A stretch of 64,000 bases of DNA from Candidatus Limiplasma sp. (GCA_963666755.2 CAXXGW010000002.1:41606-105605); one strand, 5' to 3'; numbered from the stretch's first letter, positions 122 through 63,003 are shown. Translations and numbers: made by a program. Notes: generated by a model not told the origin, from the sequence alone.

Positions 122-333
122 AAGCCCGCGGCCTACGCCGCGGGCTTCAGCCTGCTGAAAAAGGCCATCTGCTTTGTCGCCTGCACCGGATCAGGGCGGT
201 CACGTACGTTCGTGTACGCTCCCGCCAAGATCCGGTTTGGCTTCGCGCATCTGAACCTTATTGAGCAGGCTGTATACCAGCTTCTTTATAGGTTTGTCAA
301 CGGCCTGAAGCCCGCGACCTACGCCGCGGGCTT
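122..333 (-). mobile_element. family-1 element copy 1 (148-307, reverse orientation), bracketed by a duplicated 26-nt hairpin (122-147 and 308-333)
   Basis: AAGCCCGCG[G/A]CCTACGCCGCGGGCTT occurs at 122-147 and 308-333 (25/26 identical). The 160 bp between them align along their whole length with 10713-10876 and 1487-1640. Confidence 0.6.
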
Positions 334-1488: not shown

Positions 1489-1640
1489 AGATAAACCTCT
1501 TACAGGCTTCCAACCAAGCCTGCTCAAAAAGGTCTGGATGCGCGAAGTCTAGCCGCATAAGGGCGGGAGCGTACACGGACGGACGCGACCGCCCTTTGCG
1601 GCATGGGCGACAAAGCAGACGGGCCTTTTTCAGCAGGCTG
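1487..1640 (+). mobile_element. family-1 element copy 2 (left end degenerate, overlaps azlD stop)
   Basis: Aligns with 10713-10876. It shares CTGCTCAAAAAGG…GGGAGCGTACACGGACG…GGCCTTTTTCAGCAGGCTG. The -35-like TTGACA is replaced by AAGATA. Confidence 0.55.
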
Positions 1641-4118: not shown

Positions 4119-4144
4119 AGCAATAGGGGGAAGCAAACCCCCGT

Positions 4145-4646
4145 CCCCCGCCACAGCGGAAAAAGGGTCAAGGGCAAAAGCCCTTTCGGGGTCTGGCGCC
4201 GGAGGGAAGCGTACGGCCGGCGGCCGCTTCGCCGAAGGCGAAAGCGACCCGCAGGCGGGGCGCGAAACGAGCATGCAAACGGCAGTGCTGCCTGCGAAGC
4301 TAGAACGCCCGGAGTAGGCCCCTAAAATTCCCATACCGCAGCATGCAGCCGCAAGCAAGCGCACAGCCCGAAGGGCTATGAGGCGAACGGTACAGGTGCA
4401 TCACAGAATGAAGCAATCCATCCCGCGCGGCGCTTCCGTCCCTTTGGACGGAAGCGCCGCGTTCGCCTGCCGTTATCCCCCGCCACAGCGGAAAAAGGGT
4501 CAAGGGCGAAAGCCCTTGCGGGGTCTGGCGCCGGAGGGAAGCGTGCGGCCGGTGGCCGCTTCGCAGAAGGCGAAAGCGACCCGCAGGCGGGGCGCGAAAC
4601 GAGCAGGCAAACGGCAGTGCAGCCTGCGAAGCTTGAGCGCCCGGAG
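4145..4646. repeat. B-type mosaic hairpin-module repeats (two ~170-bp units, 332-bp period)
   Basis: 4145-4313 and 4477-4646 are near-identical (CCCCCGCCACAGCGGAAAAAGGGTCAAGGGC…GGCGCCGGAGGGAAGCG…GCGAAAGCGACCCGCAGGCGGGGCGCGAAACGAGC…). A 15-bp perfect hairpin lies between them at ~4426-4461. Related modules occur at 35040-35170 and 58254-58395. Confidence 0.85.
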
Positions 4647-4805
4647 TGGAGCCCCAAACCTCACCCGGGTTGCACCTTCGGAACCGAACAAGGGATTTCA
4701 TCCCCTGACCCATAAGATTGGCAAACTGCCGCAAACGCACCTCTCCCCCGCCCCAATCCCCGCGCTTCACGATTGCAAAACCTTTGGCGCAGGCGTTTCC
4801 ACCGT

Positions 4806-5760: not shown

Positions 5761-5863
5761 TTCCCGGATGCAACAAAAACCGCCCGCGCAACGTCTCTTG
5801 TTGGGAGCCGCCTGCTGTGCGGCCGCAAAAATCAGCTCACCGTTGAAGGAGGAATCTTTCTTG

Positions 5864-8161
5864 ATGTTAAAACGCGCGTTCGCCCTGCTGATGACGCTTT
5901 GCCTGGCACTGGCCGCCGTGGGGCCCGCCGCCGCCGAGGCGCAAAACGCATCCTTCTACCTGCAATCCTACAGCGCCAGCGCCCCCGCGGAGGATAAGCG
6001 CGTAACCGGCGGCACCGCCCTGGGCGATACCCTGTATATCATGACCGGCAGCACTCTGGAAAGCTGGAAACCCGGCGAGGCGGAGCCGACCGTCCTTGCG
6101 GATGCGGTCGTTAACGCCGATTATATTAGCCCAGATGAATCCGACAAGGCGGAAAGCACCGGGGACGCCGTCTACAACCGGCTGCTGGCATACGGCAACG
6201 CCTTGTACGGCCTTAACCTGAACGACGGCAAGCTCTGGAAGCTGGTTGACGAAACCGGCTACCTCGCCAAGCCCGTGGCGCAAACCCCGCTTGCGTGGGA
6301 TAAGGTCTCCCGGACAAGCACAGACGGGGATTATACCTATGTTCCGCAGTTCAACGATTTTGCCGTGGTCGGGCAGACCCTCTACGCGTGCGCCGTCGAT
6401 TGGAACAACTCCGACCCGGCGTATGAGGTGTTCGGCTGGGCGCTGGATACCGGCGCAATGACCCTGCACCGCACCGATCTGGCCCTGCGCACGATGGACG
6501 CGTACCGCGACGGGCTGCTGATCGGCAAACAGTACGACGATACCAAAAGCTGGGACGAGGCCACCCAGACCCAGCTGATGCCCAACCTGATTACGCTGGA
6601 CCCCGCCACCGGCGAAACCAAAACCCTGTTTGCCTTTGAAGGCGCAGACATCTACGGCGTGCGCTACAACGCCGCCAACGATACGCTCTATTATGTAAAC
6701 GGCTCCAGCGTTTACAGCATGGCCGGGCTGCAACAGCCAGCCAAGCTGAGCGCCTACCTGCCCAACCGCGTCTGGGAGGATGCGCGCATCTGCCTGCTGG
6801 ACGGCAACATGTACGCTGTGATGGACAGCAACGGCGTGGTGGTGCGCGGGCTGGATATGCCCGGCATCGAAAACGGCGCGCTGACCATCTACGGCGAATA
6901 CGGCAGCGCCGGGCATCAGGCCTACCTGAAAGCCTACCCGCAGGCGCTGGTCACCTGCTCGGAGGATTATTACAACGATCTGGAGGAGTTTACCAACGCC
7001 ATGGTGGCCGGCACCAACGCGGTGGACGTGCTGCGCCTGAGCACCGACTACTCCCCCTTTACCCGGCTGGTGGAAAAAGGTTACGCGCTGGACCTGAGCC
7101 CCTACCCGGAGCTGACGGCCGCCGTACAGGCCATGGACCCGAACCTGACCCGTTTGTGCTACCAGGACGGCAAGCTCTACGGCGTGCCGGTGGAGATGTA
7201 CGCTAACTGCTTCGGCTACAACACCGAAGCCTGGAAGTCCCTCGGGCTCACGGAGGACGATCTGCCCAAGACCATGCTGGATGTGCTTGATTTCCTGCAA
7301 AACTGGCAGGCCGATTACGGTGAGGAGCATACCGACCTGATGCCGCTGGACGTGGGCGACCTGCGCACCACGGTAATGGATTGGATTCTTACCGCCTATG
7401 TGGCCCAGTCCGACGCCAAGGGGGAAGCCCTCTCCTTTGACACGGAGCTGTTCCGCAAGCTCCTGACCGCGATGGAGGCCATCGACTTTACCGAGCTGCA
7501 GCCCGAAGACTCCAATGCCGACAGCGATTACTGGAACCGTACGCCGGTCATGTCCGTTTACATGACGGCTACCTACCCCGGCCAATACCGCTACAACACG
7601 ATGCAGCTGCTGCCTCTGCCGATCGACGAGGGCATGGACCCCGTGCTGCCCGTGAGCCTGCAGCTGTTCATCATCAACCCGCGCACCACCCATCTGGATC
7701 AGGCGGTGCAGTACCTGACCACCTACGTGCAGAACCTCGCGCCCGAAAGCGAAGGGATTACCCTCTACCCAGACCACAACGACCCGGTTGTGAACCAGAG
7801 CTTTGAAAGCGACCTCAAAGGCTGGAAAGACAGCGTCGAAACGGTTACCAAACAGCTGGAAACCGCCAAGCCGGAGGAGAAAGCCTCCCTGCAAAACGAT
7901 CTGGATTACCTGAACAAGCTGATTGCCAATGCGGATGACGACCGGTATCTGGTTTCCGCCAAGGCGATTGAGCAGTACCGTACGCAGATTGCGCCCTGGC
8001 TGGTGGTTGGCGACCAATCCCCGCTCAAGGTATGGGGCAAGGACGGCTCCAACGAGTTCAGCACTCTGGAAAACCAGTATATGGACGGCGCCATCACGCT
8101 GGATACGTTCGTCAAGGAGATGGACAAGCGCATCCGCATGATGCAGCTGGAAGATCAGTAA
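5864..8161 (+). CDS. double-size extracellular solute-binding lipoprotein (N-terminal repeat/propeller-like domain + family-1 SBP domain)
   Basis: Signal peptide MLKRAFALLMTLCLALAAVGPAAA. The C-terminal ~430 aa look like an ABC sugar SBP (ALTIYGEYGSAGHQAYLKAYP…VDVLRLSTDY…KLYGVPVEMY). GAAGGAGG lies upstream. Paralog of 8301-10628. Confidence 0.75.
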   Translation: MLKRAFALLMTLCLALAAVGPAAAEAQNASFYLQSYSASAPAEDKRVTGGTALGDTLYIMTGSTLESWKPGEAEPTVLADAVVNADYISPDESDKAESTGDAVYNRLLAYGNALYGLNLNDGKLWKLVDETGYLAKPVAQTPLAWDKVSRTSTDGDYTYVPQFNDFAVVGQTLYACAVDWNNSDPAYEVFGWALDTGAMTLHRTDLALRTMDAYRDGLLIGKQYDDTKSWDEATQTQLMPNLITLDPATGETKTLFAFEGADIYGVRYNAANDTLYYVNGSSVYSMAGLQQPAKLSAYLPNRVWEDARICLLDGNMYAVMDSNGVVVRGLDMPGIENGALTIYGEYGSAGHQAYLKAYPQALVTCSEDYYNDLEEFTNAMVAGTNAVDVLRLSTDYSPFTRLVEKGYALDLSPYPELTAAVQAMDPNLTRLCYQDGKLYGVPVEMYANCFGYNTEAWKSLGLTEDDLPKTMLDVLDFLQNWQADYGEEHTDLMPLDVGDLRTTVMDWILTAYVAQSDAKGEALSFDTELFRKLLTAMEAIDFTELQPEDSNADSDYWNRTPVMSVYMTATYPGQYRYNTMQLLPLPIDEGMDPVLPVSLQLFIINPRTTHLDQAVQYLTTYVQNLAPESEGITLYPDHNDPVVNQSFESDLKGWKDSVETVTKQLETAKPEEKASLQNDLDYLNKLIANADDDRYLVSAKAIEQYRTQIAPWLVVGDQSPLKVWGKDGSNEFSTLENQYMDGAITLDTFVKEMDKRIRMMQLEDQ

Positions 8162-8300
8162 CTCCCCCCCTTTGCGCAAACTGCCACATCCGCGCGGACA
8201 TTTCGTCCGCGCGGAACCTGTTTATGGACAGTCGGGCAACCCCCGGCGGCCGTCTGTGCTATAATCAGCGTATCTTCGAATCAGGAAAGGATGAGCACCC

Positions 8301-20821: not shown

Positions 20822-21784
20822 ATGCCGACCGTACTGCTGACCGCCATAGGCTCCGCCGCGGCGCATGCTGCCCATACGGCCCTGACCGCCGCGGGCTGCC
20901 GGGTGCTCGGCTGCGATATTTATCCCCGCGCCTGGAACGTGAACGCCATGGAGATGGAACCGTTCCTGAACGTGCCTCCGGCCACCGATGCGGAGGCCTA
21001 CACCGCAGCGCTGCTGGACGCCGTGCGCGCCTACGGCATCCAGGCTATCCTGCCCCTGACCGACGTGGAGGTGGACGTGCTTTGCACCCGTAAGCCTGCC
21101 TTTGCAGCGCTGGGCGCGACCGTCTGCTGCCCCGAACCCGCCGTGGCCGACCTTTGCCGCGATAAGCTGCGCATGGCGCAATCGCTGGATGCGGCGGGGC
21201 TGTGCGACGTGATCCCCACATGGACGCGCGAAACCCTCCCGGCGGAGCCGCCCTACCCGCTGCTGCTCAAACCCCTGCGGGGCCGCAGCAGTCAGGCCCA
21301 ACAGGTGGCGGACGATGCGCAGGCGCTTACCCTGGCGCTCAGCCAGCGGGCGGATTACATCCTCCAGCCCTATTGGCCCGGCGACGTATACACCGTCGAT
21401 TGCGCCCGCGATGCGCAAGGCAACACGGTTACCCTGACCCGCCGGGAGCGCCTGCGCACTGTGAACGGGCTTGGCACCGCGGTGGAAATCTGCCCCGCCC
21501 ATCCGCTGGACGCGGTGTGCCGCGGCATACTGGCCCATGTAGGGCTGGTGGGCGTGGTCAATATGGAGTTTATCCGCCGTGGGGATACCTACCGCTTTTT
21601 AGAGGTCAACCCCCGCTTTTCAGGCGGGGTTGGGTTCAGCCTGCTGGCGGGGTATGATTTTGTGAATGCCATGCTGCGCTGCCACGCGGGGTTACCGCTG
21701 GTACCGGCTCCGGTTTTCGCGCCGATGACGCTGGCACAGCGCTATGAGATGTGTATCACGCGCCGGGGCGGAGAAGATCAGTAA
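20822..21784 (+). CDS. ATP-grasp domain enzyme
   Basis: ATP-grasp layout (…PLLLKPLRGRSSQ…, …VVNMEFIRRGDTYRFLEVNPRFSGG…). GGGAGGG lies 7 nt upstream. Confidence 0.8.
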   Translation: MPTVLLTAIGSAAAHAAHTALTAAGCRVLGCDIYPRAWNVNAMEMEPFLNVPPATDAEAYTAALLDAVRAYGIQAILPLTDVEVDVLCTRKPAFAALGATVCCPEPAVADLCRDKLRMAQSLDAAGLCDVIPTWTRETLPAEPPYPLLLKPLRGRSSQAQQVADDAQALTLALSQRADYILQPYWPGDVYTVDCARDAQGNTVTLTRRERLRTVNGLGTAVEICPAHPLDAVCRGILAHVGLVGVVNMEFIRRGDTYRFLEVNPRFSGGVGFSLLAGYDFVNAMLRCHAGLPLVPAPVFAPMTLAQRYEMCITRRGGEDQ

Positions 21785-21788
21785 AAAT

Positions 21789-22385
21789 GGGTCAAGGGCC
21801 AAGGGCCCTTGTCAGGTTTCCAAAGGGTGAAACCCTTTGGTAGGTTTGGGCGAAGCCCATGCCCTCAGCCGCAGCGAGAGTGCGCAGCGCGCGAACAGCG
21901 CCAAAGGCGCTATGAGGCGCGCGGGGATAGAAATAAGCCGCATGAAAGCAAAAAGGGGGTCAAGGGCCAAGGGCCCTTGTCAGGTTTCCAAAGGGTGAAA
22001 CCCTTTGGTAGGTTTGGGCGAAGCCCATGCCCTCAGCCGCAGCGAGAGTGCGCAGCGCGCGAACAGCGCCGCAGGCGCTATGAGGCGCGCGGGGATAGAA
22101 GCCTGCCTCATGCAAGCGGTAGAAGCTGGTTAGGTGCCATCTCCTTCCCCGTATAGGGCAAAACAAGGCTCTTGAATACAACCAGAAAGGCCGGGGCGAT
22201 CGCCCCGGCCTGTGCTGTTTCACTTTGGAAGGGTTCAGGCCATGAGCCGTACCCGCGCGCCTCATAGCGCCTTCGGCGCTGTTCGCGCGCTACTTTTTTG
22301 GGGTAGATCCGGGGGACGCAGGGGTTTCACCCCTGCACCATGACAAGGGCTTCGCCCTTGACCCCTCTCCGCTGCGGCGGGGGGC
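21789..22385. repeat. A-type mosaic hairpin-module array: 2 tandem 168-bp units, central hairpin, 1 inverted variant unit
   Basis: Units start at 21789 and 21957 (GGGTCAAGGGCC…TTTCCAAAGGGTGAAACCCTTTGG…GCGCGAACAGCGCCnnnnGGCGCTATGAGGCGCGCGGGG). The central GGCCGGGGCGATCGCCCCGGCC is at 22189-22210 and the inverted variant at ~22252-22385. Confidence 0.9.
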
Positions 22386-22420: not shown

Positions 22421-23707
22421 TCAGGTTTCGCCCATGGCCTGCAAATATTCCTCCAGGCACCAGCCCTTATCCCGCATCACCACGGAGTGCTGCACCCCCA
22501 CATACCGGATATGCCACACCTCGGCGGTAAAGCCGGTAATGGCTTCCTTGCCCTCCTGATACCGCACAATAAACCCATAATCCCAGCAGTTTTTGTGCAG
22601 CCAGATTTGCTGCTTGGTGCCCTTGAAAATCGTATCGGCCACCGTAATATCAAACGCGAGGCCCGTATGGTGCTCGCTGGTGCCGGGGTCGGCCACGGTC
22701 TGCTGCGTGGCGCTCACGGCCGAGGCTTTGGTGCGCCCATCCTTGAGGTACTCCTGCACCTTGTCGTCAAACAGTTTCTTCTGGTACGCATAGCTGCGGT
22801 ACCCGGCGCTGATCTGCCAGCCGGTGATACCGTCGGCCTTGGCGGCCTCAAACATCTCCTTGAGCGCGTCCACCGCCTCGCGGTTGCCCTGAATTTCGCT
22901 GCCCTTAACGTATACCAGGCTGGACGGCAGGGTGTTGCGCAACCCCACCAGATCGCTGGGCTGATAATCCTGCGGCACCGGATGGTCGCGGTTTACCAGC
23001 AGCGGCATCGTCGCGGGGTCCGGCGTAGGGGTAACCTGCACGGCGGGCGCATCGGAGGCGAACACCGCGGCCATGGTGGCGCTGCCGCATACGCCGTCCA
23101 CATCCAGCCCGTTCTGGCTCTGGAACAGGCGGATGGCCTCCTGCGTGCCGCCGCCGTAATCGCCATCCACGCCGCCGGCGTAATAGCCCAAATCCTTCAG
23201 GCGCTGCTGCAGGCTCTTGACGGCGTCGCCCTGATCCCCCTTGCTCAGCTTGGAGGGCGTGGGCGAAGGCGTGGGCGTGGGGATGTAATAATCCGCCTTG
23301 CCGCCGTACAGCGATGCAAGCGTGTCCGCACCGGCCAGCCCGTCGGCAATCAGCCCCTGCTGGTTCTGGAAAAGCTTGACCGCCAGCGCCGTGGCCTGCC
23401 CGTACTGCCCGTCCACCTCGCCGGTATAGTAACCCAGCGTCTTGAGCTGGGTCTGCAGGCGGGTTACCTCGTCGCCAGCGGTGCCCAGCTTGAGCACCAG
23501 CGCCGTCGCGGCAGGGGTGTTGGCCGGGTCGGCCGTTACCATCAGCATGCTGGCGGTATTGGCGGTGGGGGTGGGCGTGGCGTTGCGCTCGCGGTCAAGC
23601 GAGGTATATGCGTCCATCGTGCCCGGCGCAAGCAGGTAAATGCCCACGCAGCAGGCTGCGAGGGCCACCCAGAGCAGGAGGGTTGTAATGCTCGGCTTCT
23701 GACGCAT
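22421..23707 (-). CDS. VanY-type (M15B) D,D-carboxypeptidase with three PG_binding_1 repeats
   Basis: N-terminal TM, three repeats of the type GDEVTRLQTQLKTLGYYTGEVDGQYG, and a C-terminal SAGYRSYAYQ…SEHHTGLAFDI…WHIRYVG catalytic pattern. ATG 23707 follows AAGGAG. Confidence 0.85.
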   Translation of the reverse strand: MRQKPSITTLLLWVALAACCVGIYLLAPGTMDAYTSLDRERNATPTPTANTASMLMVTADPANTPAATALVLKLGTAGDEVTRLQTQLKTLGYYTGEVDGQYGQATALAVKLFQNQQGLIADGLAGADTLASLYGGKADYYIPTPTPSPTPSKLSKGDQGDAVKSLQQRLKDLGYYAGGVDGDYGGGTQEAIRLFQSQNGLDVDGVCGSATMAAVFASDAPAVQVTPTPDPATMPLLVNRDHPVPQDYQPSDLVGLRNTLPSSLVYVKGSEIQGNREAVDALKEMFEAAKADGITGWQISAGYRSYAYQKKLFDDKVQEYLKDGRTKASAVSATQQTVADPGTSEHHTGLAFDITVADTIFKGTKQQIWLHKNCWDYGFIVRYQEGKEAITGFTAEVWHIRYVGVQHSVVMRDKGWCLEEYLQAMGET

Positions 23708-23812
23708 GGCGGCTCCTTTCGGCTGGGGGCGGCTTAGCGCGCAAACCCCGGTTATACAACGGCGCACCCCTGCCGGTTATGCCCGCGCGGGCGGGTTTTT
23801 ACAGGCGCGGCG

Positions 23813-25094: not shown

Positions 25095-25161
25095 TTTGTA
25101 AACCCGAAAGCAGAAGGGTGCAGAATGTTACGACGTTTTCATGATGATGGAGGTTTTTTTT

Positions 25162-26037
25162 GTGCAAAAACAGCTCAAGGTTACATATCATTACAACAGC
25201 GGGTTCTCCATCCGGGTGGGAAGCAGCCTGCTGGTGTTCGACTACTGGGAGGGTGAAAACAGGCGGCTATCCGAGGTTGGCAGGTTAAACCGGAGCATCC
25301 TCAAGGCGTTTGAACAGGTCTACGTTTTCATCAGCCACGCGCATCCCGACCATCTGGACCCCGTGGTGTACGATTGGCGCAACGACGTGCCCAACATCCA
25401 ATACATTGTCAGTGCCGACCTGCCCATTGGCAAGCGCGGCCGCCGCGTCGCCCCGCTGGATACCCTGACGCTCAGCCAGGACATCAGCGTTCAGGCGTTT
25501 GACAGCACCGACCTGGGCGTGAGCTTTTTAGTGACCGCCTACGGCATGCGCATCTTCCACGCGGGCGACCTGAACCTGTGGCACTGGCGGCAGGAAAGCT
25601 CCCTGCGGGAAATCGAAGCCGCCGAGGAAGCCTTCTACACCGCCTGCGAGCCAATCCCCTCTGGGCAGATCGATCTGGCCATGTTTCCCGTCGACCCACG
25701 GCAGGGTCTTTTGTACGACGCGGGCGCCAATCACTTTATCCTGACGAAGAAGCCGCGCCTGTTCATCCCCATGCACTGGCAGGATCGCCCCGAGGTGGCC
25801 ATCGACTTTGCGCGGCGGGCGCGCACCCCGCAAACCGAGGTGCTGGCCATGACCCGCCCGGGCGAATCCGCCACCATCACCTATGACGACCGTATTCTGG
25901 ACATCCACATTGTGGAGCCGCCCAAGGATTTGAACGACCTTCCCCCCACCCCGGCGCGCCGCCCCGATTACCGCGGGCTGGGCGAAACGGGCGAGGATCC
26001 CTTTGCCGATACCGACCTGCCCGTGGATTTCAGCTGA
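25162..26037 (+). CDS. MBL-fold metallo-hydrolase
   Basis: Contains the HxHxDH motif (ISHAHPDHLD). GTG 25162 lies 8 nt after GGAGG. ATG 25141 is an alternative start. Confidence 0.75.
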   Translation: MQKQLKVTYHYNSGFSIRVGSSLLVFDYWEGENRRLSEVGRLNRSILKAFEQVYVFISHAHPDHLDPVVYDWRNDVPNIQYIVSADLPIGKRGRRVAPLDTLTLSQDISVQAFDSTDLGVSFLVTAYGMRIFHAGDLNLWHWRQESSLREIEAAEEAFYTACEPIPSGQIDLAMFPVDPRQGLLYDAGANHFILTKKPRLFIPMHWQDRPEVAIDFARRARTPQTEVLAMTRPGESATITYDDRILDIHIVEPPKDLNDLPPTPARRPDYRGLGETGEDPFADTDLPVDFS

Positions 26038-26059
26038 GGGCGGAATGGGGACAGCGGGA

Positions 26060-26805
26060 AACCGGGTCAAGGGCCGCTGGCCCTTGTCAGGTTTCCAAAG
26101 GGTGAAACCCTTTGGCCCAGCCGCAGCGAGAGTGCGCAGCGCGCGAACAGCGCCGCAGGCGCTATGAGGCGCGCGGGGAAAGCGCTTTGCTTGCATTATG
26201 GAATGTACCTTGCACCCGCCGCAACGGAACCGGGTCAAGGGCCGCTGGCCCTTGTCAGGTTTCCAAAGGGTGAAACCCTTTGGCCCAGCCGCAGCGAGCG
26301 CGCGCAGCGCGCGAACAGCGCCGCAGGCGCTATGAGGCGCGCGGGGAAAGCGCTTTGCTTGCATTATGGAATGTACCTTGCGCCCGCCGCAGCGGAACCG
26401 GGTCAAGGGCCGCTGGCCCTTGACAGGTTTCCAAAGGGTGAAACCCTTTGGCCCAGCCGCAGCGAGCGCGCGCAGCGCGCGAACAGCGCCGCAGGCGCTA
26501 TGAGGCGCGCGGGGGCGGACACCAGCCCTATGCTAGCGGTAGAAGTCGGTTAGCTACCGTATCCTTCCCCGTATAGGGCGGAACAAGGCTCTTGAATGCA
26601 ACCAACAAGGCCGGGGCGATCGCCCCGGCCTGTGCTATTTGACTTTGGAAGGGTTCAGGCCGTGAGCCGCACCCGCGCGCCTCATAGCGCCTTTGGCGCT
26701 GTTCGCGCGCTACGTTTTTAGGGTGAATCCGGGGGACGCAGGGGTTTCACCCCTGCACCCTGACAAGGGCTTTCGCCCTTGACCCTTTTCCGCTGCGGCG
26801 GGGGC
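26060..26805. repeat. A-type mosaic hairpin-module array: 3 tandem 168-bp units, central hairpin, 1 inverted variant unit
   Basis: Unit starts at 26060, 26228 and 26396 (exact 168-bp period). The central GGCCGGGGCGATCGCCCCGGCC is at 26609-26630 and the inverted variant at ~26672-26805. Confidence 0.9.
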
Positions 26806-26840: not shown

Positions 26841-27542
26841 TCAGCGGCTATACAGGCCGGTCTGCACCTCGCGGATATACGTATCAATCCGCGGTACCTG
26901 CGGGGTCGCCTGCGCATCCGACACCGCACGGGCCCGGTCATAGGGCAGCGTCAGCAGCCGTACCTCCAGCGCTGCCCCGGCATCCTGCACATCCCCCTCC
27001 AGCAGGGCATAACAGCACAGCGGCTCCCCCAGTGCGTTGCCCACGCTGCCGCAGTTAAAAAACAGCCCCGGCGTAAGCATCCGCAGCGCCTGCCGGTGCG
27101 CGTCGGCACAGCCCACGCAATCACAGCGGAAGCCGTTGCAATCGGTAAAGAAGGGGTCGATCGTCTGCGCATCATGCTGGGCGGTTACCAGCGTGCGCAT
27201 CACCGGTCGGCCGTGGAACAGCCGGATACGGCGGCCGCTCAGCGTGAGCGTCTTTTCCAGCGGCAGGTTACGCAGCGTTTCCATCCGCTTTTCGCCCAGC
27301 TGCCGCCAGTAAAAATCATCGGGCGCGTACTGGCGGTACCCCACGCCAAAATCCCAGTTGCCGCCCAGGATCAGGTCACAGTTAGCCACCGCCCAATCGA
27401 ACGTGCGGTCGCTTGAAGGGCCTTTGCCCACCAGATCCCCCAGGCAGTAGAGGCGATCCGCGCCCCGGCGGGCAAGGTCGCGCTCCAGCGCCTGGGTGGC
27501 GGGCCAGTTGCCGTGCAGGTCGGCGATCAGCGCAATGCGCAT
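26841..27542 (-). CDS. metallophosphoesterase (calcineurin-like, YfcE/MJ0936-type)
   Basis: MRIALIADLHGN…YCLGDLVGKG…GNWD… are the canonical D-x-H / GD / GN motifs. Confidence 0.8.
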   Translation of the reverse strand: MRIALIADLHGNWPATQALERDLARRGADRLYCLGDLVGKGPSSDRTFDWAVANCDLILGGNWDFGVGYRQYAPDDFYWRQLGEKRMETLRNLPLEKTLTLSGRRIRLFHGRPVMRTLVTAQHDAQTIDPFFTDCNGFRCDCVGCADAHRQALRMLTPGLFFNCGSVGNALGEPLCCYALLEGDVQDAGAALEVRLLTLPYDRARAVSDAQATPQVPRIDTYIREVQTGLYSR

Positions 27543-33492: not shown

Positions 33493-34980
33493 ATGCCCAA
33501 GCTGACTATCCAACGCGGTACGCAAACCGCCGCGCTTCCCTTTACCGGCACGCCCACCCTTGCGCAGGCGCTCGCGCAGGGGCCTTTTGCGTTGCCCCAG
33601 CCCTGCGGCGGGCGCGGCACGTGCGGCAAGTGCGCGGTGCAGGCGCTCACGGGCGCGGTTTCACCCCCGACCGCGGCGGAGCGCAGGCTGGGCACACGCC
33701 TCGCCTGTCAGGCCGTGCTGCTGGGGGATTGCGCCGTAACCCTGCCCCCCGCGCAAACCTGGGCCGATGCCGAAACCGAGGCCGCCGTGCCGTCGCTGGG
33801 CACGCCCATGCCCGGCCGCTACGGCGCGGCGGTGGATCTGGGCACCACCACCGTGGCGGCGCGCGTGTTCGACCTGCAAACCGGCGCGCCGCTGGCCGCG
33901 CATACGCTGCTTAACCCGCAGACCACCGTCGCGGCGGATGTGATGGGCCGCATCACGACGGCGCTGCAAGGCGAACTTCCAACCCTGCAACGGCAGGCGC
34001 GGGAGGCGGTCATGGCCGCGATCGCGGGCGCGTGCGCACAGGCGGGCGTTGATGCCGTGCAGGCCGTGACGCTTGCGGGCAACACCACCATGCTCTACCT
34101 GCTCACGGGCCGCTCGCCGCAATCGCTCGCTACCGCCCCGTTCGCCGCGGATACCCTGTTTGGCGAGGAAACCATGCTGGCAGGCACCCCGGTCTACCTG
34201 CCGCCCTGCGCCGCTGCCTTTATCGGCGCGGATATCACCTGCGCGGCGCTGGCCGCGGGGCTGGACGAAGCGCCCGATACGGTGCTGCTGATGGATATCG
34301 GCACCAACGGCGAGCTGCTCCTGCGGCATGGGGGCCAGCTTTATGGCGCCTCTACCGCCGCTGGGCCAGCCTTTGAAGGCGGGCAGATTTCGCAGGGCTG
34401 CGGCGGTGTGCGGGGCGCGATCGACCGGGTCTGGCTGGAGGGCGGCACACTGGGCACGCATGTGATCGGCGGGGGTAAAGCCATAGGCGTATGCGGCTCC
34501 GGGCTTCTGGATGCCGTCGCGGCGCTGCTGGAAGCGGGCCGCATCGACGCAAGCGGCCAGACCGACGCGCCCGTGATCCCCCTGCGGGATAGCGTGGCGC
34601 TGACCGCCGCCGATGTGCGCGCGGTACAGCTGGCCAAGGCCGCGATTGCCGCCGGGGTGGAAAGCCTGCTGGCCGCGGCAGGGATTGGGGCCGCGCAGGT
34701 GAGCCGCGTCCTGCTGGCGGGTGGTTTCGGCAGCCGTTTGCGGGTGCAGAGCGCCGCGGCGATCGGGCTGATCCCCGCGCCGCTGGGCTCCAGGTCAAGC
34801 CCCATCGGGAATGCGGCGTTGGCGGGCGCGGCCATGCTGCTGTTGGATACCCGGCTGCGTAAGCGGGCAGAAGCGCTTGCCCGCGCGGTGCGTATTGTGC
34901 AGCTGGGCGGCGACGCGCAGTTTGAGCAGCGGTTCCTTGCGGCAATGTGCTTTCCCTGCGCCTATGATGAGGATGAGTAA
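33493..34980 (+). CDS. 2Fe-2S ferredoxin + ASKHA (DUF4445) protein, RACo-like corrinoid activation family
   Basis: N-terminal CGGRGTCGKCAV cluster motif followed by the DUF4445 pattern (AVDLGTTTVAARV…LMDIGTNGELLL…GPAFEGG…GVCGSGLLD). Confidence 0.85.
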   Translation: MPKLTIQRGTQTAALPFTGTPTLAQALAQGPFALPQPCGGRGTCGKCAVQALTGAVSPPTAAERRLGTRLACQAVLLGDCAVTLPPAQTWADAETEAAVPSLGTPMPGRYGAAVDLGTTTVAARVFDLQTGAPLAAHTLLNPQTTVAADVMGRITTALQGELPTLQRQAREAVMAAIAGACAQAGVDAVQAVTLAGNTTMLYLLTGRSPQSLATAPFAADTLFGEETMLAGTPVYLPPCAAAFIGADITCAALAAGLDEAPDTVLLMDIGTNGELLLRHGGQLYGASTAAGPAFEGGQISQGCGGVRGAIDRVWLEGGTLGTHVIGGGKAIGVCGSGLLDAVAALLEAGRIDASGQTDAPVIPLRDSVALTAADVRAVQLAKAAIAAGVESLLAAAGIGAAQVSRVLLAGGFGSRLRVQSAAAIGLIPAPLGSRSSPIGNAALAGAAMLLLDTRLRKRAEALARAVRIVQLGGDAQFEQRFLAAMCFPCAYDEDE

Positions 34981-35019
34981 ACTCTGAAGCCATCTTCACA
35001 AGGCGATCAAAATGGAGGT

Positions 35020-35660
35020 GCAGGAGGCACTGCCTCCTGCCGGGGCTTGGGCGCCGGAGGGAAGCGTGCGGCCAGTGGCCGCTTCGCCGCAGGCGAAAGC
35101 GACCCGCAGGCGGGGCGTGAAACAAGCAGGCAAACGATAGTGCAGCCTGCGACGTTTGAACGCCCGGGTCAGAACCCCAAACCCCAACGCCGCAGCGTTA
35201 CTCCCAAAGCGAGCGAACAGCGCCGCAGGCGCTATGAGGCGAGCGGCAAACACACATTGCTGTATATTTGTTTACAGTAGCATAGCAGTGCAGGAGGCAG
35301 CGCCTCCTGCCGTTTCTTGTGTGCCCAAGAGCACGCATCCCGCAGGCTAAGCGTAAAGCAAGCATGCAAATGGCAACACAGCCAAAAAGCATGAACGCCC
35401 GGGTCAGAACCCCAAACCCCAACGCCGCAGCGTTACCCCCAAAGCGAGCGAACAGCGCCGCAGGCGCTATGAGGCGAGCGGCAAAACACATTGCTGTGTA
35501 TTGTTAACAGAAGCATAGAAGTGCAGGAGGCAGCGCCTCCTGCCGTACCTTGTGTGTCCAAGAGCACACGTCCCGCAGGCGGGGCGTGAAACGAGCAGGC
35601 AAACGGCAGTGCAGCCTGCGAAGGTTGAACGCCCGCATCAGAACCCCAAACCCCAACGCC
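35020..35660. repeat. mosaic repeat array with GCAGGAGGCAG(C/T)GCCTCCTGC hairpins (three units)
   Basis: The hairpin occurs at 35020-35040, 35290-35310 and 35523-35543, and again at 45770-45790. Units combine a B-type module, CAGAACCCCAAACCCCAACGCC and GCGAGCGAACAGCGCCGCAGGCGCTATGAGGCGAGCGG. Confidence 0.85.
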
Positions 35661-35823
35661 ACAGCATAGCCCTCAAATCGCACAAGTAACGCAAAGGGAC
35701 ATGCAGTGCACTACGACCAACCCTGCCGGTTATAGTAACAAAATCGCCCGCACTGACTGGAGTGCGAGCGGTTTTTATGAATGAGGAGCCTCGTGCCATT
35801 GTGAACCCTGAATCGCGCCCTTT

Positions 35824-45674: not shown

Positions 45675-45790
45675 CTACCGCCGCTCGCCTCATAGCGCCT
45701 GCGGCGCTGTTCGCTCGCTTTCTGGTTTACGCTGCGGCGTTAAACTTTGAGGCTCCGCCTCAAACTCCGGCAGGAGGCAGTGCCTCCTGC
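45675..45790. repeat. solo mosaic repeat modules
   Basis: CCGCTCGCCTCATAGCGCCTGCGGCGCTGTTCGCTCGC plus the GCAGGAGGCAGTGCCTCCTGC hairpin (45770-45790). Both are shared with the 35-kb array. Confidence 0.8.
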
Positions 45791-45811
45791 ACCTCCGCTT
45801 TGCATTATCAA

Positions 45812-45850
45812 AGGCCCCGCGCCACCCTTCCTTGGGGTGTCGCGGGGCCT
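45812..45850. terminator. bidirectional terminator hairpin (gyrA 3' end / convergent + strand gene)
   Basis: AGGCCCCGCG…CGCGGGGCCT stem with T-rich tracts on both strands. Confidence 0.7.
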
Positions 45851-58185: not shown

Positions 58186-58395
58186 CTGCCGCTCGCCTCA
58201 CAGTGCTTGCGCTGCTGTTCGCCCGATTGCGCCATATGTTGCGATAAAAAACTTTGGGGCTTTGCTCCGGGCGTTCAAGCTTCGCAGGCTGCACGGACGT
58301 TGGTCTGCTCGTTTCACGCCCCGTCTGCGGGTCGCTTTCGCCTGCTGCGAGGCGACCCCTGCCGCACACTTCCCTTTGGCGGCAAAACCTCACCA
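58186..58395. repeat. solo mosaic repeat modules (degenerate A-type piece + inverted B-type module)
   Basis: CCGCTCGCCTCACAGTGCTTGCGCTGCTGTTCGCCCG, then the reverse complement of the B-type module (…GCTCGTTTCACGCCCCGTCTGCGGGTCGCTTTCGCC…). Confidence 0.75.
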
Positions 58396-60545: not shown

Positions 60546-61019
60546 ATGCAACCCCGACTCTGGCGCACGGAAGACTCCCTGCCTGTAAAGCGATATCTGA
60601 TGGAATATCTGGCCATGTGCCAGCGGCGCGACGCGCTTACCGCCGAGCTGGAGCGTTTACGTGCCGCAACCCTGCGCGCCACCGCCCGTTTGGATCCTGC
60701 CTGCGTGCAGACTTCGCGCAATCCGTCCTCCGGCGAGGATGCCCTGATCCGGGTGGTCGACGGCGAAGCGCGGCTGCAGGAGATCATCACCCACATTGGC
60801 GACGCGCTGGCCGCGCGCCTGTGTTTGCTGGAAGCCTTGCCCGACGAGCGGCAAAAGACAATCTTAACACTGCGCTACATTCGCGGCATTGCCTGGGAGA
60901 AGATCGGGTATGCCATGCATTACGAGCGCACACAGGTTTTTGAAATCCACAATCAGGCGCTTCGCGCAGCGCAAGTGGTTCTGGATGGGCTGGAGGAGCC
61001 GCACGAGGGGACATATTAA
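60546..61019 (+). CDS. sigma-70 region-4-like HTH protein (DUF1492 / phage late-regulator-like)
   Basis: C-terminal ERQKTILTLRYIRGIAWEKIGYAMHYERTQVFEIHNQALR resembles a sigma region 4 HTH. Length is ~157 aa. AAAGGTGG lies upstream. Confidence 0.55.
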   Translation: MQPRLWRTEDSLPVKRYLMEYLAMCQRRDALTAELERLRAATLRATARLDPACVQTSRNPSSGEDALIRVVDGEARLQEIITHIGDALAARLCLLEALPDERQKTILTLRYIRGIAWEKIGYAMHYERTQVFEIHNQALRAAQVVLDGLEEPHEGTY

Positions 61020-61039
61020 TCATTATAGGCGGAAAAAAA

Positions 61040-61950
61040 CGGGTCAAGGGCCGCTGGCCCTTGCGGGGTCTGGGGCAGCGCCCCAGCGTACCCCGGGCTT
61101 TCTCAAAAAGCGTAGCGAGCGAACAGCGCCGCAGGCGCTATGAGGCGAGCGGGTGCGGCCCACAGCCTGAGCCCTTCCAAAGTTAAATAGCACAGGCCGG
61201 GGCGATCGCCCCGGCCTTGTCTGTTGCATAAAATAGCTATTCTCTCAGTGCGGATAAGGATGCGCCCTTGCCCCGATGCAGCCTGAGCAATCCATGCAGC
61301 CCGCCCCCGCGCGCCTCATAGCGCCTTCGGCGCTGTTCGCGCGCTACGCACTCTCGCTGCGGCTTGGGCCAAAGGGTTTCACCCTTTGGAAACCTGACAA
61401 GGGCCAGCTGCCCTTGACCCATTTCCGCCGCGGCGGGTGCAATGTACCTTCCATAATGCATGCAAAGTGTATTCCCCGCGCGCCTCATAGCGTTTTCGGC
61501 GCTGTTCGCGCGCTACGCACTCTCGCTGCGGCTGGGGCCAAAGGGTTTCACCCTTTGGAAACCTGACAAGGGCCAGCGGCCCTTGACCCGTTTCCGTTGC
61601 GGCGGGTGCAAAGCATCTTCCATAATGCACGCAAAGTGTATTCCCCGCGCGCCTCATAGCGCCTGCGGCGCTGTTCGCGCGCTACGCACTCCCGCTGCAG
61701 CTTGGGCCAAAGGGTTTCACCCTTTGGAAACCTGACGAGGGCCAACGGCCCTTGACCCGTTTCCGCTGCGGCGGGCGCAAAGCACCTTCCATAATGCACG
61801 CAAAGTGCTTTCCCCGCGCGCCTCATAGCGCCTCCGGCGCTGTTCGCGCGCTACGCGCTTCGCTGCGGCTGAAGGCCTTGGGCTTCGCCCAAACCCACCA
61901 AAGGGTTTCACCCTTTGGAAACCGGACAAGGGCCAGCGGCCCTTGACCCA
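61040..61950. repeat. A-type mosaic hairpin-module array, mirror arrangement: 1 variant unit, central hairpin, 4 tandem 169-bp units in reverse orientation
   Basis: The central GGCCGGGGCGATCGCCCCGGCC is at 61195-61216. CCTCATAGCG landmarks fall at 61314, 61483, 61652 and 61821 (exact 169-bp period). Confidence 0.9.
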
Positions 61951-61971
61951 TTTCTTCTCTATCTCCCCTGT

Positions 61972-63003
61972 TCAGGTACTGTCTTTTTCCACAAAGCCCC
62001 ACGGCATCACCACCGGTTCCTGCGGCTGGCCGTCAATCATCCGCATCAGCATATGCACCGCCTCCGCGCCAAGCCGCTGCTTGGGGTGATCCAGCGAGGT
62101 GATCCGCACCGCCGCCAAATCCGCCATGGTGCTATTGTCAAAGCTAATGATGGCCAGATTCCCCGGCACCAATTTCCCGGCCCGCAAGAGCAGGTTTAAC
62201 AGCGGCACCGCCACCTCGTCGTTATAGCAGACCACGGCTGTGCAGCCCGCCGTTACGCTCAGGCCGTACTGATCCACCATGTCCGCGCGCGTCGCGGTGG
62301 AAAACCACAGCACGCGGTCGTCCATCAGCTCCAGCCCATGTTCCTGCAGCGCGTCGGCATAGCCCAGGTAGCGCTCGTGCCCCTGCCGATCGTCATACTT
62401 AAAAATACCGGCAATGCGCGTATGCCCTTTCCGGATCAGGAAATTGGTCGCATCGTACCCGCCGCGCCGATCCTCCGTGACAATGTAAGGGATGCCTGCC
62501 AAATCCCGGTAGAAGCCGTTCAGGAACACAATCGGCACCCCGTGCTCCTTCAGCTTGCGGTACATGTCCAAATTCGGGTTGGGCAGGGCGCTTTTGGTGC
62601 CCTCCACCAGCAGCCCGTCGATCGGCTTATCAAACAGGGCATGCAGCACGCGGCTTTCGCTGTCCACCCGGTTATTGGTGGCAAACAGCATCGGCGTATA
62701 GCCGCGCAGGCTCAACGCCTCCTGTATGCCCGCCAGGATACTGGGCAGGATGTATTCGCTGATGTAGGTGCTGACCACCGCCACGTTATGCCCGCGTTCG
62801 GCGCGCTTCTGCACGCCGCGCACATACGTGCCGCTGCCGCGGATACGCTCGGTCAGCCCTTCGGTGGCCAGTATGCCCAACGCCTGCCGCACCGTCTGGC
62901 GGCTACAGCTATACTGCACCGTCAGCTCGTTTTCCGAGGGCAGCTTCTCCCCCCGCACGTATTGGCCGTTGCGGATGGCGGCGCGCAATGCGTCGGTCAG
63001 CAC
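61972..63003 (-). CDS. GntR-family HTH regulator with LacI/PBP1-type sugar-binding domain (AraR-like)
   Basis: LPSENELTVQYSCSRQTVRQALGILATEGLTERIRGSGTYV is a GntR wHTH. It is followed by a periplasmic-binding-protein-like domain. The true start is probably a few codons upstream (see finding). Confidence 0.85.
   Translation of the reverse strand: MLTDALRAAIRNGQYVRGEKLPSENELTVQYSCSRQTVRQALGILATEGLTERIRGSGTYVRGVQKRAERGHNVAVVSTYISEYILPSILAGIQEALSLRGYTPMLFATNNRVDSESRVLHALFDKPIDGLLVEGTKSALPNPNLDMYRKLKEHGVPIVFLNGFYRDLAGIPYIVTEDRRGGYDATNFLIRKGHTRIAGIFKYDDRQGHERYLGYADALQEHGLELMDDRVLWFSTATRADMVDQYGLSVTAGCTAVVCYNDEVAVPLLNLLLRAGKLVPGNLAIISFDNSTMADLAAVRITSLDHPKQRLGAEAVHMLMRMIDGQPQEPVVMPWGFVEKDST

Follow-up and report, generated by a model that had tools for sequence, protein, structure and literature searches.

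Lineage-specific modular hairpin repeats in the 3' regions of genes in uncultured high-GC Clostridia near 'Candidatus Limiplasma'

The most familiar interspersed hairpin repeats of bacteria are those of Proteobacteria and streptococci. The tag of repetitive extragenic palindromic (REP) sequences is GTAG, which is cleaved by the REP-associated tyrosine transposase (RAYT), and the survey of REPs that reports this makes no mention of Firmicutes or Clostridia (PMC3733652). In Streptococcus pneumoniae, BOX elements are over-represented between convergent genes, and another repeat, SPRITE, resembles a Rho-independent terminator (PMC3049150). Here, we describe a family of three-hairpin repeat units in a 64 000-nucleotide stretch of DNA from Candidatus Limiplasma sp. 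(GCA_963666755.2, CAXXGW010000002.1:41606-105605; the whole stretch is referred to as the window and positions are counted from its first letter). The units form tandem arrays at three loci, E1, E2 and E3, and we characterize them as lineage-specific, interspersed, modular hairpin repeats in the 3' regions of ordinary genes of uncultured high-GC Clostridia near 'Candidatus Limiplasma'. A literature search brought up no account of repeats of this kind from the lineage; the family is undescribed and heavily amplified, and its hosts belong to an uncultured, gut-type Clostridia lineage.

Arrays, hairpin modules and covariation

Three tandem arrays with a period of 168 or 169 bp were located within the window by Tandem Repeats Finder: E2 at 26060-26514 (168-bp period, 2.7 copies, 98% matches, no indels), E1 at 21789-22100 (168-bp period, 1.9 copies) and E3 at 61305-61871 (169-bp period, 3.4 copies, 92% matches), the last lying on the opposite strand. 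All three loci share one plan, in which an array is combined with a conserved centre containing a perfect 22-bp palindrome and with one opposed variant unit. A preliminary description of this DNA, made from the sequence alone, had reported the 168-bp tandem arrays, three named hairpins in each unit and the 22-bp palindrome, with the same grammar recurring at 21789 and, mirror-imaged, at 61040. The repeat finder, pattern searches and shuffled sequences agree with it on these features, and the mirror-imaged array is indeed E3.

The E2 array comprises unit 1 at 26060-26227 (+; repeat call, 128.2 bits with the covariance model described below), unit 2 at 26228-26395 (+; 98% identity to unit 1) and unit 3 at 26396-26514 (+; repeat call and covariance model). 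Unit 1 begins 28 nt past the stop codon of the metallo-β-lactamase (MBL)-fold gene 25141-26037 and consists of hairpin 1 (26065-26088), hairpin 2 (26095-26115), hairpin 3 (26141-26174) and a 55-nt tail. Three full units had been proposed here; units 1 and 2 are complete with core and tail, and unit 3 is a core without a tail. The centre (26515-26671, defined by alignment) carries the palindrome GGCCGGGGCGATCGCCCCGGCC at 26609-26630 and is followed by a single opposed unit of subtype B at 26672-26805 (-), which had been described as an inverted variant and is recognized by the covariance model with 117.6 bits over 26672-26784. Hairpins 1 and 3 of this unit are as in the array and its hairpin 2 is GCAGGGGT-GAA-ACCCCTGC; it lies 57 nt after the metallophosphoesterase gene 26841-27542 (-).

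At E1, the array (21789-22093, +) begins 6 nt past the stop codon of the ATP-grasp gene 20822-21784. Its two units belong to a long subtype, in which a further hairpin, 2b, is present and the tail is short (32 nt). The array is followed by a centre at 22094-22251 (palindrome at 22189-22210) and by an opposed subtype B unit at 22252-22383 (-; covariance model), 58 nt past the stop codon of the VanY-type gene 22421-23767 (-). At E3, the order is reversed. A single unit of a variant subtype (61031-61153, +; 101.5 bits) lies 23 nt past the stop of the gene 60546-61019 (+), with a linker and palindrome next to it; the centre occupies 61154-61305 (palindrome at 61195-61216) and the array of four units (61306-61419, 61475-61588, 61644-61757 and 61813-61948) spans 61306-61954 (-), 24 nt after the GntR/LacI-type gene 61972-63003 (-). 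The gene-proximal unit of this array (61813-61948) is of the long subtype and is spaced at 191 bp. The palindrome has three exact copies in the window, one per locus (22189, 26609 and 61195). There are nine exact copies of hairpin 2 and, with up to two mismatches allowed, 15 of hairpin 3, all of the latter intergenic; neither hairpin occurs in shuffled sequence.

Alignment of the loci revises the preliminary description in two further respects. The centre of about 150 bp had been called unique; its right ~70 nt, which adjoin the opposed unit, are conserved at 94-100% across the three loci, and the left half of the E2 centre is common to E1 only. The tails had been called variable, which holds between arrays only; inside each array they are near-identical. 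The 168-bp period itself is reached in different ways, with a 136-nt core and a 32-nt tail in E1 and a 113-nt core and a 55-nt tail in E2, and its sharing by these two arrays is probably a coincidence. The suggestion that 168-169 bp represents 16 helical turns was rejected on account of the related spacings of 191, 235 and ~119 bp. The arrays also differ from a clustered regularly interspaced short palindromic repeat (CRISPR) array, as whole 168-bp units repeat at 92-98% identity without unique spacers.

The core of the unit, of approximately 113-136 nt, is a three-hairpin module with the order leader, hairpin 1, hairpin 2 (sometimes with hairpin 2b), GCCGCAGCG box and hairpin 3. A covariance model (R1) built from 14 cores finds 12 of the 12 units of the three loci with scores of 101-131 bits, and metagenomic copies score 42-112 bits. 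In an alignment of 24 distinct copies, 97.1% of the cells pair, and 16 of the 25 pairs have changed on both sides, a value matched by none of 500 shuffles; slid controls pair at only 27-49%. In hairpin 2, the compensatory changes run from AAAGGGT/ACCCTTT to AAAGGGC/GCCCTTT and to the pair of arms found in the opposed unit of E2. In the inner helix of hairpin 3 they run from AGCGCC/GGCGCT to AGCCGC/GCGGCT and to AGCCC/GGGCT, and the outer helix alternates between GCGCGC/GCGCGC and GCGAGC/GCGAGC, the second of which can form tandem G-A pairs. Hairpin 3 is an imperfect palindrome of ~37 nt with an asymmetric internal loop, GAAC/AUGAG, that is invariant in all copies. Both hairpin 2 and hairpin 3 have GNA triloops closed by C-G, a type of loop that is unusually stable in DNA. 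The K-turn, sarcin-ricin and tetraloop-receptor motifs were considered for the hairpin-3 loop by eye, using their consensus sequences, and none of them fits. A scan of Rfam at gathering thresholds returned one tRNA only and no family for the units; at E-value thresholds, the best sub-threshold matches were to Clostridiales-2 RNA (RF02937), with 21-30 bits against a gathering threshold of 58.6, the one at 26081-26163 having 21 bits.

Gene ends, orientation and the shared palindrome

Each of the three composites lies between convergent, unrelated housekeeping genes: ATP-grasp and VanY genes at E1, MBL-fold and metallophosphoesterase genes at E2, and a small sigma-like and a GntR/LacI-type gene at E3. 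According to the open reading frame (ORF) map of the window, members of the family are present at six of ten convergent junctions, one of 24 co-directional junctions and none of nine divergent junctions (Fisher p = 2e-4), which bears out the association with convergent gene ends that had been put forward for checking. Among the convergent junctions that lack family members, no spacer exceeds 121 bp, and the extent of one is uncertain; within the window, the family fills every convergent junction with a spacer larger than ~150 bp.

The first unit starts about 5-58 nt past the stop codon, and the units precede terminator-like hairpins. Counting 14 independent sides from the window and the metagenome loci, the unit has the same sense as the preceding gene on 13 (binomial p = 0.002). 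Both orientations occur at one locus, each with its own gene, and (+) and (-) sites are about equally frequent in the window. Because the two orientations share one locus, orientation follows transcription and not replication.

The palindrome has a 10-bp stem with nine G-C pairs, and at least five of the eight following bases are T on both strands (26608-26631 and 61194-61217). By these sequence criteria it looks like a bidirectional intrinsic terminator. On its own it is a generic GC hairpin, since in a genome collection it turned up as 53 singletons in unrelated high-GC genomes. On the side of the opposed unit, the centre reads as unit, linker and terminator-like palindrome. The locus had been described as a giant inverted repeat, and inverted arms do exist: the hairpin-3 module forms arms of 48 nt with 92% complementarity and a separation of 148 nt, and the composite has outer arms of 31 nt that are 87-90% complementary. 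The symmetry is patchy, and the opposed unit differs from the array units in the subtype of its hairpin-2 region. Since the units on each side are same-sense with their own gene and the palindrome is terminator-like on both strands, the structure is better read as two convergent gene tails with same-sense units and a shared bidirectional terminator-like palindrome than as one palindromic object.

Gain, local amplification and related modules

The G+C content of the window is 58-71%. The closest named relatives of the MBL-fold protein flanking E2 are from 'Candidatus Limiplasma', Eubacteriales and Clostridia metagenome-assembled genomes (MAGs), and no exact database records were found for three proteins of flanking genes. 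A metagenome scan with a 27-mer of hairpin 3 yielded seven contigs from the Joint Genome Institute (JGI) with 53-63% G+C, which carry solo units of ~135 nt and whose EcfT proteins are closest to those of Limiplasma and Eubacteriales MAGs. The junction between ecfT and truA can be compared across species. In one species it has a 315-bp spacer with a unit, identical in six assemblies; in a species with an 89% identical EcfT it has a 150-195-bp spacer without a unit, and in two complete genomes with 85-86% identical EcfT the spacer is 20 bp. By comparison of these spacers, the unit at the ecfT-truA junction is a lineage-specific gain. The density of hairpin-3 modules is 15 per 64 kb in the window and two per 20.8 kb in the unit-bearing ecfT-truA species, and none was found in ~87 kb from other relatives. 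Among the relatives with an MBL protein that is 83-85% identical, no family member lies beside the orthologous gene, the gene order differs and no empty site was found for the three composites.

Within the window, identities are arranged by subtype. The E1 units and the gene-proximal E3 unit, which make up the long subtype, are 91% identical, units of the short subtype (E2 and E3) are 92-96% identical and the two opposed units of subtype B are 94% identical. The units inside E2 are 97-99% identical to each other, indicating recent local duplication there. The composite as a whole, with a length of 600-930 bp, is found at the three loci in both orientations with 79-85% identity. A related array in locus L059 has a period of ~119 bp.

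Some observations on relatives touch the same gene tails. In a near-identical strain (locus L054, 2194-3237), an IS30-family element with HTH_38 and rve domains begins inside the hairpin-1 loop of the first E2 unit; this may be either a real insertion or a chimeric short-read join. The MBL protein of this strain differs at five of 291 residues, all near the N-terminus. In locus L057, the MBL protein of which is 85% identical, an unrelated 37-bp tandem repeat of approximately four to five copies (11090-11260) is located downstream of the gene orthologous to the MBL gene. Gene tails that are long and filled with repeats may be a general feature of the lineage. A related contig breaks off 95 bp past the orthologous gene, and this end may or may not be connected with a repeat.

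The window contains further relatives of the unit that had not been listed in the preliminary description, the named sites of which were all found. A solo unit at 45680-45793 (-) scores 83.5 bits with the covariance model; its architecture is kept and the sequences of its hairpins 1 and 2 are unrelated to those of the other units. Hairpin-1 modules were found at 4145 and 4477, in two composite elements (4144-4315 and 4476-4660, both +) in which the family leader and hairpin 1 are followed by a second structured domain, R4a/R35. This domain of ~125 nt starts with GGCNCCGGAGGGAAGCG and has a predicted multi-stem fold, with compensatory changes in 14 of 34 pairs among eight copies. Its copies in the window are at 4193-4312, 4525-4644, 35048-35168 and 58255-58378 (-), and those in relatives are at L057 1806-1932, L064 4176-4300, and L065 4084-4208 and 10424-10546; L057 is without the 168-bp family. 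The domain has no Rfam match. Its place is 5' of the hairpin-3 module of the family; it can come after hairpin 1, and in one case it is nested inside hairpin 1. Since the hairpin-3 module also closes R4a/R35, the system is a mosaic of structured modules with a common 3' piece.

A 235-bp-period array at 35006-35700 (+) combines the R4a/R35 5' domain with hairpin-3 modules at 35211-35244 and 35446-35479. It follows the RACo-like gene 33493-34980, within its 3' region, and ends at a terminator-like hairpin with a T-run (35745-35778). Its repeats contain a hairpin, GCAGGAGGC...GCCTCCTGC, together with the R4a domain and hairpin 3, and the first hairpin region (35006-35064) matches RF02937 with 30 bits (E = 2.4e-5 over the 321-base stretch searched).

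A third repeat family of ~165 bp, unrelated to the three-hairpin unit, is present at 147-308 (-), 1520-1640 (+) and 10713-10875 (+), with 81-91% identity between copies and a TTGACA-like box. The copies around 147-308 and 10713-10875 are flanked by short GC-rich hairpins. Two adjacent large genes, 5768-8161 and 8301-10628, have 3' ends (8075-8175 and 10542-10642) that are 84% identical in DNA sequence; the two genes are probably tandem paralogues.

Proposed mechanism, rival explanations and known repeat systems

We propose, with a probability of approximately 0.5, that the units are co-transcribed structural repeats of 3' untranslated regions that have spread between loci and have been expanded locally by unequal recombination. 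A module would be transcribed together with the upstream gene, in the sense of that gene, and its GC-rich stems would give the transcript a structured 3' tail that precedes an intrinsic terminator. This tail could block 3' exonucleases or insulate convergent transcription units from each other, and the invariant loop of hairpin 3 could be the docking site of a putative trans-acting factor. Modules would arrive at new loci by some copying route and would then multiply head to tail in place, through unequal recombination or replication slippage, to give the 168/169-bp arrays. Where both genes of a convergent pair bear units, these would come together at a single palindromic terminator that serves both, giving the appearance of a giant inverted repeat. 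The structure, position and orientation of the units, their lineage-specific gain and their local amplification are shown by the data above, and transcription, the stabilizing or insulating role, the trans-acting factor and the route of spread are inferred from them. Of the functions that the preliminary description had offered, an mRNA 3'-end element or RNA array fits best, given the covariation, the position after the stop codon and the shared sense of unit and gene.

Several points weigh against this proposal. The argument for co-transcription is one of position. The alignment behind the covariation figures had been fitted to the model, and close relatives make up many of its rows; the asymmetry between G-U and A-C pairs, which would show which strand is transcribed, derives from a single pair. 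The stability of the GNA triloops fits a reading of the hairpins as single-stranded DNA (ssDNA) equally well. The solo unit at 45680-45793 is separated from its same-sense (-) gene by a bidirectional terminator (45813-45850) and lies antisense inside the 3' region of another gene. Finally, the recurrence of the whole composite at three loci suggests DNA-level movement as one piece.

Other explanations were weighed against the same evidence. Hairpin 3 might be read as ssDNA by an HUH/Y1 (RAYT-like) transposase encoded elsewhere, so that the family would be selfish DNA of the kind of REPs and REPINs (paired REPs), the opposed hairpin-3 pairs around the centre would be the mobile doublet and any effects on RNA would be by-products. 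Hairpin 3, as a 37-nt imperfect hairpin with an invariant mismatched loop and, like hairpin 2, a GNA triloop closed by C-G, suits this explanation, as do the REPIN-like spacing and complementarity of the 48-nt arms, the high copy density with a patchy distribution among related species and the GTAG tag directly 5' of hairpin 3 in seven of the 15 window copies. However, the other eight window copies have GCAG (five) or AAAG (three), and no copy from another species has GTAG. Most copies are head-to-tail or solo and not inverted doublets, orientation tracks the upstream gene, and hairpins 1 and 2 covary too, as parts of a conserved unit. RAYTs are usually single-copy genes and are usually flanked by REPs. 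No Y1 transposase or RAYT was found by Pfam scans of selected ORFs in the window and 240 kb of related loci, the available sequence being ~2% of the genome, and the same type of scan found no transposase of any kind in the window; a tblastn search with an IS608 TnpA query, a weak test, gave no match. The earlier suggestion of a RAYT-like transposase substrate is not supported by these results, and we regard a REP/REPIN-like origin as the main rival explanation, though an unlikely one. A little more doubtful is the idea that the whole 600-930-bp block is a non-autonomous, DDE-mobilized element resembling a MITE (a miniature transposable element with inverted repeats), with its terminal inverted repeats at the outside and the inner units as a variable tandem module comparable to boxB. 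The 31-nt ends with their 87-90% complementarity and the occurrence of the composite in both orientations favour it, and BOX elements share the plan of terminal modules with a tandem internal module and are enriched between convergent genes (PMC3049150). It is opposed by the solo units and other module combinations that have no partner end, and by the three junction pairs, at which no target-site duplication is visible, the exact ends not being fixed by an empty site. Nor was a parent insertion sequence (IS) with matching ends found in the examined sequence, the only IS seen being the IS30-type element of L054, the ends of which are unrelated. Plasmid and phage collections and viral contigs gave no match to the family.

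We consider it improbable that the units are independent small-RNA genes, each driven from a promoter in its tail. In favour are the structure and covariation of the module and a conserved TGGAA(T/G)-N5-TTGC(A/G) motif with sigma-54-like spacing in the E2 and E3 tails; this motif was rejected as a promoter, as the pattern occurs 38 times against 48 expected by chance at the same stringency and the E1 tail is without it. A scan of the arrays for sigma-70 promoters found nothing inside the units, there is no terminator between units and the first units adjoin stop codons. Least probable of all, to the point of being barely credible, is an assembly artefact or a protein-coding repeat. As 168 bp corresponds to 56 codons, two frames are open through E2, giving the spurious ORFs 25528-26406 (-; 292 amino acids) and 26164-26553 (+; 129 amino acids). 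However, the period of E3 is 169 bp, four of the six reading frames contain stops and two units translated in six frames found no homologue among the best 8000 candidates from 5.8 billion proteins, a weak negative; on these grounds, the units are not protein-coding. The array units differ from each other by substitutions, the left junction of the array at 26060 was recovered in an independent European Nucleotide Archive contig and the solo units are identical in at least six independent metagenome assemblies, so the arrays are not an assembly artefact and the objection raised in advance on this score is not borne out.

A bolder possibility, tentative and on balance unlikely, is that the three-hairpin unit and R4a/R35, which can stand in for the 5' part of the unit or be nested there, together represent a new class of structured RNA, with the constant hairpin 3 as the handle for a dedicated protein, either an RNA-binding protein or a copying enzyme. 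If this were true, variable heads with one 3' recognition module would have spread sense-wise through gene tails, unlike REPs and MITEs, which act at the DNA level, and the system would parallel, in bacteria, the eukaryotic short interspersed nuclear elements (SINEs) with their heads and shared tail. The family is predicted to yield structured gene tails of 600-900 nt, and its covarying helices, invariant loop and co-orientation with genes make it a tractable case for distinguishing an RNA-level job from tolerated selfish DNA. There are practical consequences as well: the arrays break short-read assemblies of these genomes, and both spurious ORFs through E2 are open to annotation as proteins.

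The resemblance to REPs, their clusters (bacterial interspersed mosaic elements; BIMEs) and REPINs is broad. The units are extragenic, GC-rich, imperfectly palindromic and present in high copy number; they gather where transcription units end and in the intervals between convergent genes, and form clustered composite arrays with opposed pairs around a spacer. GTAG is present 5' of the hairpin in some copies, and the roles proposed for REP-type sequences, mRNA 3'-end protection and termination, are those that would be considered here. Hairpin 3 alone has the size and character of a REP, an extragenic, high-copy imperfect palindrome of 20-40 nt. REPs also have a conserved tag, GTAG or CGTC, on one side of the palindrome. 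The unit as a whole differs, with 113-168 nt and three hairpins compared with single hairpins of 20-40 nt, no family-wide conservation of GTAG, no RAYT found and a Clostridia host. In BIMEs, REPs alternate and are separated by short defined motifs, whereas here the orientation is the same inside each array. The likeness to BIMEs that had been drawn in the preliminary description thus stands for extragenic hairpin repeats at convergent gene ends and fails for the arrays, which run head to tail without alternation. Inverted doublets, characteristic of REPINs, do not predominate here, as there is one opposed pair per composite. RF02937 is the only Rfam family with any signal, on neighbouring modules; this signal is far below threshold, has no counterpart of the model's middle hairpin and does not extend over the whole unit.

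With MITEs, the family shares terminal inverted repeats, here of 31 nt, and with SPRITE a terminator-like palindrome, here at the centre. The BOX elements of S. pneumoniae (boxA-boxB(n)-boxC) are found in the same phylum, Bacillota (Firmicutes), and the composites, with two, three or four tandem units between partly complementary terminal modules, are comparable to them by analogy of design only. Stable folds on transcription are predicted for both. No sequence relationship is expected between hosts of ~40% and 64% GC. The repeated module is 168 bp here and 45 bp in boxB; here, in addition, there are solo units that strictly follow the sense of the upstream gene, covariation of the helices extends across species and one internal loop does not vary. 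The repeats are best placed not as a demonstrated member of the REP/BIME, BOX or MITE groups but as a newly described family that joins the interspersed intergenic repeats already known from bacteria.

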